NCBI GenBank assembly: GCA_964016885.1
Contig: OZ024742.1
Coordinates: 76,942,001-77,006,000, forward strand
DNA: 64,000 nt
Source: Eledone cirrhosa
Taxonomy: Eukaryota
Reading direction: 5' to 3'
In this document: positions 3,241-63,367 of the stretch, piece after piece
Numbering within the stretch: the first letter of the stretch is position 1
Layout: each line of letters begins with the position of its first letter
Translations under genes and position numbers: made by a program
The notes under the pieces: model-generated
Seen by the model: only the letters and a program-made list of their open reading frames with translations
Database searches by the model: none
What the model was told of the DNA's origin: nothing

Positions 3241-4547
3241 ATATGTGTCAGTATTGGAGTATGAATAATGTACATGTTTAGCTCTATGGGTTGTGTTTTT
3301 ATATTTTTTGTTAGATTATTGGGAGTAGTTCCTTATATAGATCTTCTTGTGTAGGGAATCTGTTGGATCTTCTTATTATCTGGTTGCAGTTGACCTGAAA
3401 TTATTTGCTTTTACATTGAGGGAGATGTTTTGTGATTGTTTCAGTCGTGGATAGCGAGTAGGTTTTTTCTTGCTGTTGTGTTTGGTTTCAATTGCTTGAA
3501 TTATGTCGAGGGTTTTGCTGTGTTGGATCTAGTAGTGTGAGTCTCTTTGAAAATGATTTTTGTGTTCAATTTCTATATGCAGGGGAGCTTAAATGGTGTT
3601 TCTTTAATTACTTTTCATGTTTCATGAACGAACTTTCAAATATTTGTTACTGATGCACTGATAGGATTTGTGCCATTCTACAGACTTCAAATTTCAATCA
3701 GTGATGTAAATGTTGCCTCTCAGCATTTTCAGCACGTTTTTTACCATCTGTTTATAATATATTTTTGATCAATTTTAACAGTAGTGGATGTCAGAATTCT
3801 TATTTCCGAGTCCTTTTCATAAGTGGCAGTTGTTTCCTTTGTTTTCCTCATTGACCTTGTGCGTTATTTATCAATGTGTTTGGAAATATTTAAGATAATA
3901 ACAACAGGGTAGAGTTTAAAAATTCCACATAGATTCCAACTTTGTATTTTTCAACTTAATTAAATATGGAATTTTCTTATTTCTAAGTGTTTTATTTTCC
4001 AAATGTGCCCGATTAGGCTTTTGATGTAAGGTGCAAATTCATGCCCTATTTTACGGATCAAAATATATCATTGATATTGTACGCTAAGAAAGAATTCGGT
4101 CTTGGTTGATATGTTGTACTCCTTGTTATGGTCGTGTTTAAAGTAGCGTAGTTTATTCAATTTTACTGTTAGAATATTGATTTGTCAATTCATCTCCCGG
4201 ACATTTTTTAGGATTTGTTCCTTTATTAGTTATATTTCTGTTGGCTGCCATCAGTGCAATTTCCCGGATTGTAGAGATTATAATGGTTAAAAAGGGGATC
4301 AATTCCAAATTCAAATCGATGATTACACGATATATATGTATGTATATATATATGAAAACAGGGAGAAAGAGACGATTATGAGGAAGAAAAACATATTTTT
4401 TTCCTTTTTTATTTCTCTCTCTCTTTTTTCTGGGTTAGAAAATGATTAAAACGAAATATTTTACTTTGTGTGAAGTGTTAAGGTATTAGTTGATATATTT
4501 ATTATTTAACAATGGCATTTATTTATCTATTTATATATTTAATTATT

Positions 4548-4590
4548 GTCTATTACCGGTTTCAGCATTTATATGCATTATCAAATGATA
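4548..4590 (-). ncRNA. Hammerhead-like motif, UUGAUAA core (inverted-arm copy)
   Basis: Minus strand reads TTGATAA tGCAT-ataa-ATGCt GAAA CCGG TA; stem I is weak. Confidence 0.5.
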
Positions 4591-4645
4591 GGGAAATGTA
4601 TTAGTGTAGTATCGCACATGTTAAACAGAAGGTGCAGAAAGAATA

Positions 4646-5653
4646 ATGTTATATACAAACAAGGTTTATGAAGTGAAAAGAAAAGAGAAAGAACAACTTC
4701 CTTTCCTCGACATCCTCATGAAGAAAACAAGCAACAAAATAGAAACAGACATATACTACAAACCCACAGACTCCAAACAATACCTTCCAATCAACTCGTG
4801 TCACCCTAGACACACCAATTTGGCAATTCCTTATAACCTAGCCAGAAGGATCTGCACAATAATTCCAGGTAAATACATATGCTACACACGACTAGAAGAA
4901 TTAAAAAACACACTTATCAGCAGAAACTACCCACCATCCCTAATCACCAATGGATTCCAACGTGCCCTAAAACTAGACATACATGAACTCAGACACCCCA
5001 AACCCAGGAATAAACCGCAACAAAAAACTCTACCATACATCTCCACACACAACCCCCTCAAAAATGAGGCATTCGACACCATCCTCCAGAACATTCCTTT
5101 ACTAAAAAGAGACCCAAGAATGAACAATATCTTTCACACACACAACATCATAAAGAGCAAAAGACAACCTAAATCCATAAAAAACATCCTCACACAAGCC
5201 AAAATCCAACAAACCCTCACAATGAACCCTACAGTAACAAAATGCGGAAGGCCCAACTGTCGCATATGCATAAATCTAATAGAAGGTTCAACATTCCATT
5301 TTAAACAAGGACAACGCTTCACAATTAGACACAACTTTGCATGTGCATCTGAAAACCTTATCTATGTTTTGACATGCTCAGGTTGTCAAGAGAACTACAT
5401 AGGACAGACAAAAAACAGCCTCCGTCAACGTATGACCGTCCATAAATCACAAAATAAAATACAGGAATACAGAAAGATTGCATTTAGTGAACATATCGCC
5501 AATTGTGCTCTCAATCAACATTCAAACTTTAAAATGTTCCCCATTTACAAATTCATAGACAACGCTACTTTCATCCAACGTACCAATAAGGAAACACATT
5601 TCATTAATACATTTCAACCACTACTCAATGCTCTAAAAATCGGACCAATCTAA
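4646..5653 (+). CDS. PLE RT C-terminal part + GIY-YIG endonuclease (5'-truncated)
   Basis: Motifs LPFLDI, YYKPTD, SCHP, CGRPNCRIC linker, NLIYVLTCSGC..YIGQT, R...H and ETHFI..FQPLLN. The first ~15 codons come from the inverted arm. Confidence 0.85.
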   Translation: MLYTNKVYEVKRKEKEQLPFLDILMKKTSNKIETDIYYKPTDSKQYLPINSCHPRHTNLAIPYNLARRICTIIPGKYICYTRLEELKNTLISRNYPPSLITNGFQRALKLDIHELRHPKPRNKPQQKTLPYISTHNPLKNEAFDTILQNIPLLKRDPRMNNIFHTHNIIKSKRQPKSIKNILTQAKIQQTLTMNPTVTKCGRPNCRICINLIEGSTFHFKQGQRFTIRHNFACASENLIYVLTCSGCQENYIGQTKNSLRQRMTVHKSQNKIQEYRKIAFSEHIANCALNQHSNFKMFPIYKFIDNATFIQRTNKETHFINTFQPLLNALKIGPI

Positions 5654-6061
5654 AACTGCAACAAACCATCAAACATTTACAAGAGTTACCTCCCTCACAC
5701 CCTACCTAATCCTTTTTCTTAATAAATTCAATATCACGCAGCAAGAATTGCTTCCCCCTGAATATTAACTCTCTAAAAACGGAACTCATATTAAACCACA
5801 GTCCACCATGTGCCTCCTTCACGGACCATGGTTCAACTAAGCACTCTTGCGATATTAACACATTTTGAACTGCTTAATTTCAATGACTGTGCTTGTAAAT
5901 AACATTATTTTTTCTTCCACATTGACTTTTCACGTGCCACATTATGCACGTTTTTTTTCCTTTCTCTTTTTTCTTTTCACTTCTTAAACTTTGTTTGTAT
6001 ATAACATTATTCTTTCTGCACCTTCTGTATAACATGTGCGACACCACACTAATACATTTCA

Positions 6062-6105
6062 CTATCATTTGATAATGTATATACATGCTGAAACCGGTAA
6101 TAGAC
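6062..6105 (+). ncRNA. Hammerhead-like motif, UUGAUAA core
   Basis: TTGATAA (6069-75), stem II, GAAA (6090-93), palindromic CCGG, TA. Confidence 0.5.
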
Positions 6106-60904: not shown

Positions 60905-61345
60905 AACAGCCAGAGTCGGTGATTGAGTGGAATTGTTATGGGATTTCAGGATATAGACAGAAAATAGAACACAATAAGCTTGGAGTGGTGGTTTTTAATA
61001 TGCAAAACAGATCGTGGCTGATTGTAAGTGTAGCTTGCCCTTTGACATGAGAGTGCTAGAAAAGGAGAACATTAACCGATACCAGGATTTAAAGTGAGAA
61101 TTAAAAGTTATTTGGTACTGTCATCATATCAAGGTCGTCCTGATGTGCATAGTACCACTAGTTACTATTTGGAAGAGTTTTCAAGGATGGTTAAAGAACA
61201 TTAATCCAGCCTCGTATTTTGGATCACTTTAAAAGACATGCTTGCTGGGAAGACCAAGAACCATCCAATACCTCCTGAATATCTGAGGCTGCAGGTAGCG
61301 GCTTGATGTTCATTTGAACAAACATTCCAGCTAAATAACATCAAC
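60905..61345 (+). mobile_element. R4/Dong-like LINE 3' fragment (restriction-like endonuclease)
   Basis: LLWDFRI*T..IEHNK..VV...IVSVACP.D..V.EKE...RYQDLK*EL..IW...VV, matching the PD-D-K RLE region; degraded. Confidence 0.7.
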
Positions 61346-61840
61346 GACTGTGACTCCAAGAAAATAATATATATACACACACACAAACATACACACACAC
61401 ACACACACACACACACACACACACACACATATATATATATATATATATATATATATATATATATATATATATATATATATATATCAATGAAAAGTGAATT
61501 AGTTGATTTGTGATCAAGTAATCCTATATATAACCGATGCCAAGCACACAATGGTATAAATATATATATATTTAACGATCGTTAAATAATGAACTTTTTT
61601 TGTTTAATATAAGGAACTGTTTCATTGTTTTATTCATTATTTTTTAAATATTTTATCTTGACTCTGTATTCCGTTTATCTTTCACTGAAAGTGATTTTTG
61701 AATGCATCTCTTCTTTCCATGATATCCGGATTACAGTGAGTTCTTCATACGGATTGGACACTACCGTAAACTTTTGGTAGATTTATCTACATATATATAT
61801 ATATATATATATATATATATATATATATATATATATATAT

Positions 61841-62248
61841 GTAGAAGTTATATTTAATTTGTTGGGATACAACAAGCAAATATTTTTATAACTGATATAA
61901 AGCACTCAACAAGTTATTGGAATAAAAAATACAATATATTAACAAATGGAAACTATATTTATAAAACCATATTTATTTCATTATACATATTTCAAGGACA
62001 CCAAAGCAAATTATGGTGCGCTTTCATCAGATAAAATATGATATCGATCATGTCGGTTGGAAGGTCCGGGAGCTTCCAACCGACATGATCGCATTCTTTA
62101 AGGGTATGTCAATATTTGTTTATAAAACTGATCTATATCATATTTTATCTGATGAAAGCGCACCATAATTTGCGTTGGTGTCCTTGAAATAGGTATAATG
62201 AAATAAATATGGTTTTATAAATATAGTTTCCACTTGTTAATATATTGT
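61841..62248 (-). mobile_element. Palindromic PLE mini-element (two HHR arms, tail, junction hairpin)
   Basis: ~61932-62049 is the reverse complement of ~62129-62248. Tail 61841-61931; 19 bp hairpin at 62045-62091. Confidence 0.85.
62141..62205 (+). ncRNA. Type I hammerhead ribozyme (second copy 61972-62040, minus)
   Basis: Stem I TATTTTAT/ATGAAATA, CTGATGA, stem II GCACCA/TGGTGT, GAAA TAGGTA TA. Confidence 0.75.
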
Positions 62249-63097
62249 ATATATATATATATATAAATATATATATACAATATGTATATATATATATATA
62301 TTATATATATATATATATATATATATATATATATATATATATATATATATATATATATATATATATATATATATATATATATATATATATATATATATAT
62401 ATATATATATATACATATAGAATTCACAAGAATCAAAGCTATGTTCAAAACATTTATTCACTTACAATGGTTTCATCCAAACCTAGGCTTGGAGTCTTCG
62501 GACCATTTTTTAATGCTTGTACATATAATTGACCTCCTATCCAACGCAAGAGACATACAGATATATATATATATATTGATGTACAGTGGAGCGACATATA
62601 TCTACTACATTTGTATAGTAATTCAAATTTAAAATAAAAATTAAAATAAGGCTTCTTCTCGATGCGAAAATGGTGGTGGATGTGAAAACTATAACTTTCT
62701 TTTTCTTTTTCTGCACACATACTAATTTGATCTATACAAACAATATCGTCCCACTACAACCACCATAATACTCTTGCTTACACGCTTAAAGTGCTTGTAT
62801 TACATGTAATACCTTGCCACACAATACTCTTATATAAATGAGACACACGTGCATGCTCTATATATGACTAACGCATACACTATCTACTAGAACTGATTAT
62901 TGGACTATTCTCTTGCATTATCTGTGTTATCTACCGCATATATTTTGATTTTGATTTTGATTTCAAATTTGAATTACTATACAAATGTAGTATAGTATAA
63001 TATATGACGCTCCACTGTACATCAATATATATGTATATGTATCTGTATGTCTCTTGCGTTGGATAGGAGGTCAATTATCTGTACAACCATTAAACAA

Positions 63098-63144
63098 TAC
63101 TCCGAAGACACCAAGCCTAGGTTTGGATGAAACAATTGTAAGTG
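63098..63144 (+). ncRNA. Type I hammerhead ribozyme, CCGAAGA core (second copy 62459-62503, minus)
   Basis: TACT CCGAAGA..CCAAGC/GTTTGG..GAAA CAATTG TA AGTG, then AATAAA. Confidence 0.75.
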
Positions 63145-63367
63145 AATAAATGTTTTGAACATAGCTTTGATTCTTGTGAATTCTATATAACTGCTCTGTA
63201 GAACAACTGATATTCTTACATTGAGCTATTTATCTTACTGGTAATAATGTAGTAACAAATTACTGACCTTCCCTGTTTATAGTTTAAAATATACATAACT
63301 CTAAATAATATCCTTAATATTATTAACTGCTCCATACTCTTCAGCTGACATACTTTAAATTACCAGT

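Follow-up and report, generated by a model that had tools for sequence, protein, structure and literature searches.

In a 64,000-nt window of the Eledone cirrhosa genome, all scorable two-ended insertions of Penelope-like elements (PLEs) pair a short end with a longer, tailed end, and the Hydra-clade elements among them carry a conserved bulged hairpin (RCTC-helix-loop-helix-TT-GAGY), mostly in two tandem copies ahead of the ORF, with which these ends lie in register: short ends fall 2-9 nt 5' of hairpin 1, with one outlier at 21, while tail ends precede hairpin 2 by 3-7 nt, so that tail length tracks the spacing of the hairpins. I lean, with a confidence a little above even, toward a joint reading in which these insertions are ordinary products of EN+ PLEs, mostly of the Hydra clade and some of Neptune type, and arise by two target-primed reverse transcriptions whose start points, in the Hydra-type elements, are set by the two tandem hairpins. 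The end architecture, which a preliminary description of the same DNA had picked out, is known; what is added here is a covarying RNA element in register with both ends. Such a hairpin makes the choice of end testable by mutagenesis, lets tail length be predicted from the sequence and marks Hydra-clade boundaries for curators; and if two hairpins do direct two-ended priming, they might offer an engineering handle for RNA-templated insertion on both sides of a cut.

Insertions and their polarity

The window is the whole 64,000-nt stretch analysed (E. cirrhosa, GCA_964016885.1, contig OZ024742.1, forward strand, 76,942,001 to 77,006,000), whose PLE copies were sorted into 11 families, A to K (Table 1). 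An inverted-repeat scan, run blind on the window, returned 10 pairs of PLE arms in which one outer end is no more than 6 nt from a (TA)n run (1.2% of the background lies within 5 nt), and the partner arm extends to the next microsatellite in nine of them. In three further two-ended insertions the arms overlap slightly or not at all: 42270-42302, 60516-60672, which was not picked up by the blind scan and is known from the preliminary list, and 8568-8858, which is absent from that list. A short and a tailed end are paired in all 12 scorable two-ended window insertions, from eight families (0.5^12 = 2.4e-4 under a coin flip). The fixed polarity asserted earlier for 12 sites thus stands at 11 of them and at the added 8568, but 62415 is not scorable, since no tailed arm of it lies in the window: the arm on the right enters an ORF, and (TA)n is not met again until 63784. 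Outside the window the ends are unlike in five of seven scorable pairs, which brings the count to 17 of 19 (p 3.6e-4 if end types were chosen freely); because only five of those seven conform, polarity is a strong bias and no law, and to say that each insertion has one end of each kind was too strong. The exceptions are L011, both of whose ends are tail ends, and L003 2156/5949, with two like ends within a larger inverted duplication. In control runs the scan recovered 431 of 480 planted symmetric palindromes overall and only 13 of 40 planted 25-nt arms at 20% divergence; as 18 short segments between (TA)n runs are also unassigned, short, old same-end pairs may have been missed.

Table 1. PLE features in the window (strand left blank where arms lie on both)
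Feature	Position	Strand	Description
Family A (Neptune-type), short arm	4354-4691	-	abuts (TA)n
Family A, main arm	4692-6368	+	ORF 4697-5653 (5'-truncated, GIY-YIG), then 3' UTR; short-end point at 6298; tail, with (TA)n inside it, 6299-6368
Family A, single-ended tailed copy	16425-16893	-	outgroup for the 4354 arms
Family B, two-ended	18032-18403		tailed arm (-, tail 59 nt), short arm (+)
Family B, long copy	26032-28744	+	tail end 28744; exceptional 5' inverted arm 26032-26094 stops inside ORF
Family B, micro-insertion	42270-42302		13-nt tail end (-), TGA joint, 25-nt short end (+)
Family C-like, single-ended tailed copy	7570-7810	+	hairpin 7706-7732, outside discovery set
Family C, two-ended	8568-8858		tail arm (-), stopping ~15 nt beyond short-end point; short arm (+), at least 133 nt
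Family C, two-ended	22965-23264		short arm (-), tailed arm (+, 88 nt); hammerhead core 23081, hairpin 23184-23204
Family C, two-ended	61841-62247		tailed arm (-, 91 nt), short arm (+); hairpin 61904-61923 (-)
Family D-like, short end	18628-18815	-	abuts (TA)n; partner arm not found
Family D-like, single-ended tailed copy	41513-41700	-	hairpin 41584-41605, outside discovery set
Family D (Hydra clade)	62415-64000		inverted short arm 62415-62647; pLTR (+) reads through into ORF, crossing hairpin 63193-63226; far end beyond window
Family E (Hydra clade), young	34652-40424		short arm (-) 34652-37083; main arm (+) carries ORF 37128-38981, tail 40339-40424, hairpin 40343-40367 and, at 40238, hammerhead core
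Family F (Hydra clade), pLTR-ORF-pLTR	56333-60417	+	direct pLTRs 56333-57295/59448-60417; ATG 57345; tail end 60417
Family F, hairpin 1	57194-57223	+	repeated at 60316-60345
Family F, hairpin 2	57302-57319	+	25 nt upstream of ATG
Family G, palindrome	15814-15984		short arm on left, arm on right tailed (87 nt); hairpin 15919-15937, 21 nt past short-end point (sole distance outlier)
Family H, two-ended	34104-34589		tailed arm (-, 86 nt), short arm (+); hairpin 34142-34187 (-)
Family H, two-ended	60516-60672		tail arm (-) 60516-60611, short arm (+) to ~60672; old, overlap slight
Family I, palindrome	50509-50695		short arm on left, arm on right tailed (81 nt); hairpin 50624-50647
Family J, two-ended	50711-52134		tailed arm (-, 57 nt) owns centre; short arm (+)
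Family K, tailed end	13164-13270	+	behind decayed Hydra-type ORF; hairpin 13213-13232
Family K, short end	15656-15698	-	abuts (TA)n

The tails span 57-91 nt in the 10 arms measured; the first estimate was ~55-95 nt. Nine of the 12 insertions duplicate the same segment in both arms and 42270 alone is entirely without overlap; 42270, 60516 and 8568 are not palindromes. The short arm holds sequence absent from the tailed arm in four (8568, 42270, 60516, 61841), the tailed arm owns the centre in five (4354, 18032, 22965, 34652, 50711), and centres are tightly palindromic at 15814, 50509, 26097 and 62068. Partnerless short ends exist at 15656 and 18628 and, outside, at L012 5322, while L012 8706-8807 is a two-ended piece with non-overlapping arms and a near-perfect match to a family copy.

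Short arms mostly abut (TA)n, as described before, although that at 60516 stops at (AAT)n, and the rule that tails meet (TA)n fails at 15814, where the tail reaches TATA(CA)n; eight of 11 short ends show at least 3 nt of TA microhomology (background 9%). At 4354 both arms abut (TA)n, and the right arm is scored as tailed solely because a second copy, at 16425-16495, has this (TA)n internally as well, with 32 nt in addition. The same end points recur between copies in family C (three insertions) and family B, as had been claimed, but 28686/28744 is no pair of ends: it is a single plus-strand arm in which 28686 is internal. Poly(A) is absent at the short and tail ends examined, and read-through copies run beyond both end points into the ORF. 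A descriptor finds a hammerhead-like core in seven of 11 families (background 3.9% per 250 nt), several of them non-canonical and that of family J of the U3-A8 kind, and Rfam hammerhead gave no match; its place shortly before the short end is borne out in C, D, E, H and J (~45-80 nt) but not in B and A (167 and 206 nt). AATAAA, also placed near the short end at the outset, is present upstream of it in eight of 11 families against a background of 8-11%, but at 38-67 nt in seven and at 3 nt in one. The usual distance from AATAAA to a poly(A) site is 10-30 nt.

A tandem hairpin in register with the ends

The hairpin was spotted by eye in the window and counted afterwards; it stands 2-9 nt beyond the short end in six of 11 window families, which shuffles scored by the best of all patterns reached in 17 of 3000 trials, and its upper helix is paired in 22 of 24 cells against 12.5. 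Held-out loci supplied a complementary 5' box for 24 of 42 3' boxes (9% in shuffles) and an upper helix paired in 56 of 66 cells (shuffle mean 35.0, maximum 48 in 20000), with covariation in the first pair, which exchanges C-G and T-A, and in the lower stem, which goes from GCTC/GAGC to GCAC/GTGC. A hairpin pair precedes the ATG at 62-68 nt spacing in the outside loci L002, L004, L005, L007, L008 and L010, the first hairpin being imperfect in L004, L007 and L008; the spacing is 108 nt in family F, whose 3' end at 60417 is read as a tail end because it lies just 5' of the hairpin-2 site. All 10 ends among those listed lie 3-7 nt 5' of a hairpin, and in one outside family the short ends precede hairpin 1 and the tail ends hairpin 2. 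Several tail-primed arms terminate within hairpin 1 or shortly beyond it (8568, 60516, L011, L012 8706 and the solo tail L012 1513). Among published consensuses, Hydra-1_Ajap has both copies, Hydra-2_Ajap and Hydra-2_Amil one each at their 3' ends, Hydra-1_Crog an imperfect one, and at the 5' end of Hydra-1_Obim the hairpin is not evident.

Polarity is kept in families A, B and J without this hairpin, and a search there for an equivalent repeat gave nothing significant; nor was an intact second hairpin found in the family D read-through. The folding energies do not stand out (z -1.45 to +1.86), neither family F hairpin appears in the minimum-energy fold, and G-U against A-C counts of 8 to 4 barely favour RNA over DNA.

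Classification of the elements

Families D, E and F carry YRDD and GIY-YIG-like strings, and Pfam matched GIY-YIG in one of nine proteins, that of A, whose full-length relatives have RT and GIY-YIG domains. Direct and inverted pLTR arrangements and 5' truncation are present as in EN+ PLEs, and the optional one-end tail occurs in 12 of 12 and exceeds the published 30-40 nt. Of the Hydra residues, F has RWK and DKT and D at 63362 has RWR and DKA, E and 20645 being 5'-truncated; the CxCx5C linker occurs in E, F, 20645 and 24736 and CxxC with CxH in three, F being frameshifted there, whilst D, E and F type ORFs lack CCHH, have a single Cys within GIY-YIG and belong to elements inserted into (TA)n. 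A quick tree, built without a named reference, placed three window ORFs with outside loci and apart from the relatives of A (SH-aLRT 100). The hairpin alone links C, G, H and I to Hydra, no ORF of these families lying in the window. Family A shows the linker CX2-5CxxC as CGRPNCRIC and two Cys in GIY-YIG as CSGC, and family B shares this pattern, which therefore leaves Neptune and Nematis both possible. A MITE or TIR DNA transposon was rejected, the ends being offset by the tail and the arms consisting of PLE 3' UTR or ORF.

How two ends might be made

Both strands of the (TA)n target would be cut, each priming one reverse transcription. For the Hydra-type elements the template would be a read-through transcript with the two bulged hairpins at the pLTR/ORF junction: one target 3' end would anneal 2-9 nt 5' of hairpin 1 through 0-5 nt of TA microhomology and yield the short end; the second would anneal immediately 5' of hairpin 2 and yield the tail end, the tail being the RNA stretch between the two priming points. 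Both cDNAs would proceed in the direction of the RNA 5' end, halt variably and join head to head, with host repair filling in. Cutting and extension on both strands, internal initiation and a predicted dimer are reported for Poseidon (PMC11167929). The hairpins may bind RT, with two RT subunits on one RNA; both primings probably take place on the same RNA, and the tail-primed cDNA would displace the other where arms overlap. The idea of two precise, reusable priming points per family, one per target strand, gains support, four of 12 short arms having sequence of their own, although its novelty is lower than claimed, two internal RT start sites being already in print (PMC11167929). More tentatively, and with rather less than even confidence, I suggest that an RT-endonuclease dimer seated on two tandem hairpins of one RNA primes both cut strands together, one at each hairpin, and so gives tail, inverted pLTR and polarity by a single geometry, with a duplicated RNA motif of clade-specific sequence playing this part in other EN+ PLE clades. 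Against the two-hairpin model speak the templates of 4354, families A, B and J without the hairpin, the like ends of L011 and L003, D without an intact second hairpin, the 21-nt distance in G, the imperfect first hairpins of L004, L007 and L008, the folding energies and G-U counts, the recognition of the motif by eye before it was counted, and the lack of a strand difference in start site for Poseidon in vitro (PMC11167929).

Arm pairs are mostly 3-8% apart. The arms of 34652 are 99.9% identical (two substitutions in ~2430 nt) and those of 4354 differ by 8%, with 22 private changes in the tailed arm and 4 in the short arm (p 5e-4), and the 4354 ORF has three violations at 68 conserved columns where ~10 would be expected, with a 0.04-0.07 chance of having no stop. 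Asymmetry without matching ORF decay points to two templates or later conversion and not to one RNA, and this Neptune-type insertion looks, from its sequence, to have been copied from two different templates. The 4354 arms look to derive from different subfamilies, which would suit an unlikely alternative, in which the primings occur on separate RNAs (two RNPs, a two-RNA dimer or the two pLTRs of a tandem transcript), with the nicks coupled to different starts; family B diverges in the same direction (5:1, not significant), the overlapping arms of nine of 12 insertions would need no strand displacement, and the tail/tail pair of L011 fits. Separate RNAs, however, give no simple reason for 17 unlike pairs in 19; Hydra-type arms are near-identical or symmetric, none of their counts being significantly unequal (D 7:3; C 1:2 and 3:2; L003 0:1 and 2:1), and arms stopping in or past hairpin 1 suggest a block on the same molecule. 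A shade less probable still is that a single tail-primed cDNA folds back and primes itself, the endonuclease resolving the hairpin DNA at the short-end point with the motif read as DNA, a scheme close to published self-priming (PMC3846280) and EN-mediated resolution (PMC8557442). Fixed polarity would follow at once, the four tight palindromic centres and the five tailed arms owning the centre agree with it, and, according to PMC11167929, recognition by the D. virilis endonuclease depends on the tail. Yet fold-back of one cDNA cannot yield sequence private to the short arm, because the tailed arm lacks it, so that four of 12 window insertions and L012 8706-8807 would each need a later deletion; the asymmetric divergence at 4354 and the partnerless short ends also count against it.

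I regard it as improbable that, as first proposed, the ends are transcript 3' ends, the short one a poly(A) site after AATAAA and the tail a processed or read-through end, even with AATAAA in eight of 11 families and RNA-seq reads ending at both points in PMC11167929: seven of the eight AATAAA lie beyond the usual distance, no short end has poly(A), read-through copies exist, hairpins 3' of both ends would be missing from such RNAs, and initiation in vitro is internal (PMC11167929). Least credible of all, to a degree that is close to negligible, is an assembly artefact, raised earlier as a possible refutation, or the fusion by deletion of chance head-to-head neighbours in (TA)n. The near-identity of the 34652 arms would allow the former and fusion could account for 4354 alone, but artefact is excluded for most pairs because arms differ by 0.1-8% in substitutions and the ends are asymmetric and recur between copies; unrelated loci on short contigs show this pattern too, and chance neighbours would be expected to mix families and end types.

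Comparison with known systems

In L1 twin priming both strands prime on RNA, giving a head-to-head inversion with short junction microhomology; the first priming is on poly(A) and the second at a variable site, with no duplication. Here both sites are fixed and the arms usually duplicate, so the twin priming proposed at the outset survives in that both target strands would prime, but not in its strict L1 form, because nine of 12 insertions duplicate the same segment and neither end has poly(A). Among retrotransposons, PLEs stand closest to telomerase.

Inverted pLTRs with a tail on one end are, as the preliminary description acknowledged, known in EN+ PLEs (PMC3846280; PMC8557442; PMC8969392), with tails of 30-40 nt ascribed to self-priming or EN resolution (PMC3846280; PMC8557442); here tails reach 57-91 nt, the one-of-each rule has been counted, and those descriptions name no hairpin. 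The elements resemble the Hydra clade (PMC8557442) in RWK, DKT, CxCx5C, CxxC, CxH, the lack of CCHH and insertion into (TA)n, the families here being new; the hairpin pair is also new, undescribed in the supplement of PMC8557442, where 'hairpin' and 'stem-loop' occur 0 times. The origin of PLE tails and inverted repeats, an open question in PMC8557442, has a partial in vitro answer in PMC11167929, where Poseidon PAc (Anolis) uses two internal RT start sites that coincide with tail ends, cuts and extends both strands of an AT-rich target, is a predicted dimer and initiates at a stem-loop. By eye, the RNA in Fig. S1B of PMC11167929 has two similar GGCCA...GCC stretches ~40 nt apart. Poseidon belongs to another clade, and the account in PMC11167929 names one AC-rich stem-loop as against the two tandem motifs found here, reports no strand difference between the start sites and does not analyse inverted products.

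Pairing of unlike ends

Inverted repeats in the window were scanned blind and judged by the distance of each outer end from (TA)n, and 10 inverted pairs of Penelope-like element (PLE) arms have one outer end no more than 6 nt from such a run (the short end), when 1.2% of background positions lie within 5 nt. The partner arm extends to the next microsatellite in 9 of the 10 scanned pairs, and the 10 tailed arms that were measured have tails of 57-91 nt; the tenth pair, at 62415, had been described as short plus tailed but has no tailed arm in the window, as it reads through into an ORF and has its far end beyond the window. 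Further two-ended insertions show little or no arm overlap (see table), including the site proposed at 60515, whose alignment scores exceed the shuffle maxima, and the two ends once claimed at 28686/28744 turn out to be a single arm. Unlike ends are paired in all 12 scorable window insertions, from 8 families (0.5^12 = 2.4e-4), and no like-ended pair was found by the inverted-repeat scan of the window, which left 18 short segments between (TA)n runs without a family and recovered planted symmetric pairs well, short old ones excepted. The insertion at 4354 was scored as tailed/short on the strength of a second copy, its internal (TA)n being part of the tail, and the inverted arm of copy 26032 terminates within the ORF.

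Among 23 inverted pairs listed for loci on contigs beyond the window (L001-L013), 7 insertions are scorable, the others lying in ORFs, being nested, having non-PLE ends or being cut by a contig end; five pairs are unlike (two in L003, one in L009, two in L012), and the like pairs are L011 (tail/tail) and L003 2156/5949, within a larger inverted duplication. Window and outside loci together give 17 of 19 unlike pairs (p 3.6e-4). The short-arm/tailed-arm pattern of the preliminary description is therefore real, and its claim that each insertion follows it stands for the scorable window insertions but not for those two outside pairs.

Coordinates of end-bearing and motif-bearing features in the window
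Feature	Position	Remarks
Two-ended insertion, little or no arm overlap	42270-42302	
Two-ended insertion, little or no arm overlap	8568-8858	absent from the preliminary description
Two-ended insertion, little or no arm overlap	60516-60672	family H; alignment scores 80 and 56 against shuffle maxima of 47 and 38
Single-ended copies with tail end	7810, 13270, 16425, 41513, 60417	
Single-ended copies with short end	15656, 18628	
Hammerhead-like cores, U3-A8 replacing C3-G8	6065-6100, 50848-50877, 52025-52054	families A and J
Other segments flanked by (TA)n and bearing hammerhead-like motifs	16188-16374, 22693-22921, 23287-23634, 50110-50457	probably other PLE families; partner arm not found
Tails with ACTCGTGT in common, a few bases in	6341, 16464, 50762	families A and J; perhaps the hairpin's Neptune-type counterpart

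Several junctions are of other kinds. At 56110-56335 about 70 nt of flank stand in inverted duplicate around a (CT)n(TA)n(AG)n run, joined to the 5' end of a family F terminal repeat via 3-nt microhomology, which looks as if the (TA)n end of the target had snapped back; the palindrome at 45105-45518, centred on (TA)15 with 96% arms and followed by a 36-nt direct repeat, differs in kind from the PLE pairs. A young family E insertion has a 38-nt stutter at its head-to-head junction (37084-37127), where the short-arm end is copied twice, and the 61841 insertion has an inner 47-nt palindrome at its centre (62045-62091) and, in its tailed arm, an internal deletion at GATC microhomology.

Coding content and clades

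The DNA of the window is AT-rich and of animal type, with numerous (TA)n runs and RT/GIY-YIG ORFs, of which those at 20645, 37092, 57318 and 63362 carry the Hydra-clade motifs listed in PMC8557442, and that at 4697 is Neptune-type. The outside loci came from scanning a Hydra-type alignment against genome contigs, which gave 13, and in a quick tree their Hydra-type ORFs cluster with those of the window; the contigs are filed as bacterial genomes, contain typical animal retrotransposons and microsatellites, and are probably animal carry-over in bacterial assemblies. A 204-codon ORF (44101-44715) lacks a Pfam match, does not resemble a PLE protein and is possibly a DNA-transposon remnant. Short interspersed repeats at 25690-25845, 54393-54501 and 60670-60894 may belong with octopus SINEs, which they resemble. 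A PDB sequence search with the proteins of families F and A matched no PLE structure, and the family B ORF has an in-frame Asn/Thr/His-rich stretch (26278-27171) reminiscent of the N-rich inserts in PMC3846280.

A tandem hairpin in register with both ends

When the tails were folded, a recurring stem was seen, a bulged hairpin of the form RCTC-helix-loop-helix-TT-GAGY. In 6 of 11 families RCTC with its complement GAGY begins no more than 12 nt from the short end, and the best of all one-degenerate 4-mers reached at least 6 families in 17 of 3000 shuffles; the upper helix, variable in sequence, has 22 of 24 cells paired against 12.5 expected in 8 window families, counted with the 3' bulge fixed at 2 nt (1 for family K). 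Copies 7706 and 41605, outside the discovery set, fit the hairpin, 78 and 71 nt before (TA)n, and the stem is absent from families A, B and J.

Because the window motif was found by eye, it was tested on the held-out outside loci, where hairpins were picked on the 3' box alone and the complementary 5' box is present for 24 of 42 (shuffles 9%). In 22 distinct hairpins 56 of 66 upper-helix cells are paired (20000 shuffles gave a mean of 35.0 and at most 48), and both stems show compensatory changes; these loci are related and hence not independent, yet come from several families. Twenty of 27 hairpins have TT as the bulge. A relaxed descriptor gave no excess (45 in total against 16-51 in shuffles), with 12 of its 45 matches no further than 90 nt from a microsatellite (background 10%), and the MAFFT hairpin alignments were not structure-true. 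A whole-tail stem with the ends as its feet was rejected, as tails fold weakly (mean z -0.9), the family C alignment folds into a single weak 3' helix and only family B fits; in non-Hydra families a repeat preceding both ends was non-significant in all 11 comparisons (best p 0.10).

In loci that retain the sequence upstream of the start codon, the hairpin is doubled at 62-68 nt spacing (L002, L004, L005, L007, L008, L010), the first copy being imperfect in L004, L007 and L008; window family F has it twice at 108 nt spacing, and the published Hydra-1_Ajap consensus also has two copies. The truncated locus L013 has the second hairpin only, and an intact second hairpin was not found in family D. 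Each of the 10 ends listed for outside loci has a hairpin starting 3-7 nt to its 3' side, which is hairpin 1 for the four short ends and hairpin 2 for the six tail ends; one outside family gives both kinds. In the window the distance from the short end to hairpin 1 is 2-9 nt in six families and 21 nt in family G. Short ends thus precede hairpin 1 and tail ends hairpin 2, so the tail is the stretch between hairpin-defined points, and tailed copies show no hairpin 2 because copying leaves it out. In L007 an element's 5' boundary (3885) coincides with the beginning of hairpin 1, and L012 has a lone tail between two (TA)-rich runs (1500-1571).

How the two ends might be made

The reading I favour, by a modest measure, is priming on one RNA with two hairpins: one end of each kind would be used because one RNA has both hairpins and is met by two RT active sites, the RT dimer being borrowed from a prediction in PMC11167929. 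Several tail-primed arms halt in or just beyond hairpin 1, and two primings fit all insertions scored in the window as well as L012 8706-8807. The Neptune-type insertion 4354, without the hairpin, counts against one RNA, since its arms carry 22 private changes (tailed) and 4 (short) with an ORF not decayed to match, which points to two templates or conversion; the same changes speak for two primings on two separate RNAs, which I nevertheless consider unlikely overall. A shade less probable again is the fold-back of one tail-primed cDNA followed by resolution, for which an endonuclease could read the hairpins as DNA (G-U 8, A-C 4), these being by folding energy not especially stable. Fold-back demands that the tailed arm hold everything found in the short arm, and this is true for 5 of 12 insertions and undecidable for 3, but fails for 4 (8568, 42270, 60516, 61841) and for L012 8706-8807, failures that later deletions could mimic.

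That the ends are RNA 3' ends is very improbable. Of 11 families, 7 have a hammerhead-like core (U4 variants in D and H) and 8 have AATAAA, but in seven of the latter this signal is 38-67 nt upstream of the short end and poly(A) stands at no end of the window insertions, so the poly(A)-site interpretation first offered for the short end is not sustained; in 8 of 11 cases short end and target have at least 3 nt of alternating TA in common (background 9%), and the short ends look like internal priming points. Of the 93 Rfam matches at E up to 5, not one is a hammerhead or reaches the gathering score, and an intron across the short end was rejected, its candidate donor (63139) coinciding with the hammerhead cleavage region. 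An artefact is scarcely to be entertained.

Relation to described elements

A tandem hairpin in register with both ends was not found in the literature searched, which excluded older PLE papers, and the word hairpin is absent from the Hydra supplement (PMC8557442); the available parts of PMC4209133, PMC8969392, PMC13282606 and 10.64898/2026.07.22.740005 add nothing further on tails or inverted arms. Neither inverted arms nor one-sided tails nor two start points are new, because PMC3846280 makes the tail optional on one of the inverted terminal repeats and puts forward self-priming, PMC8557442 places the tail frequently at a single end, attributes it to resolution by the endonuclease and regards the mechanism as open, and PMC11167929 has both strands cut and extended by the anole Poseidon element, with RT starting at two internal sites that are the tail ends and strands that do not differ. 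The pattern of the preliminary description is largely known, and its proposal of priming from both target strands, supported here in outline, was anticipated in vitro by PMC11167929.
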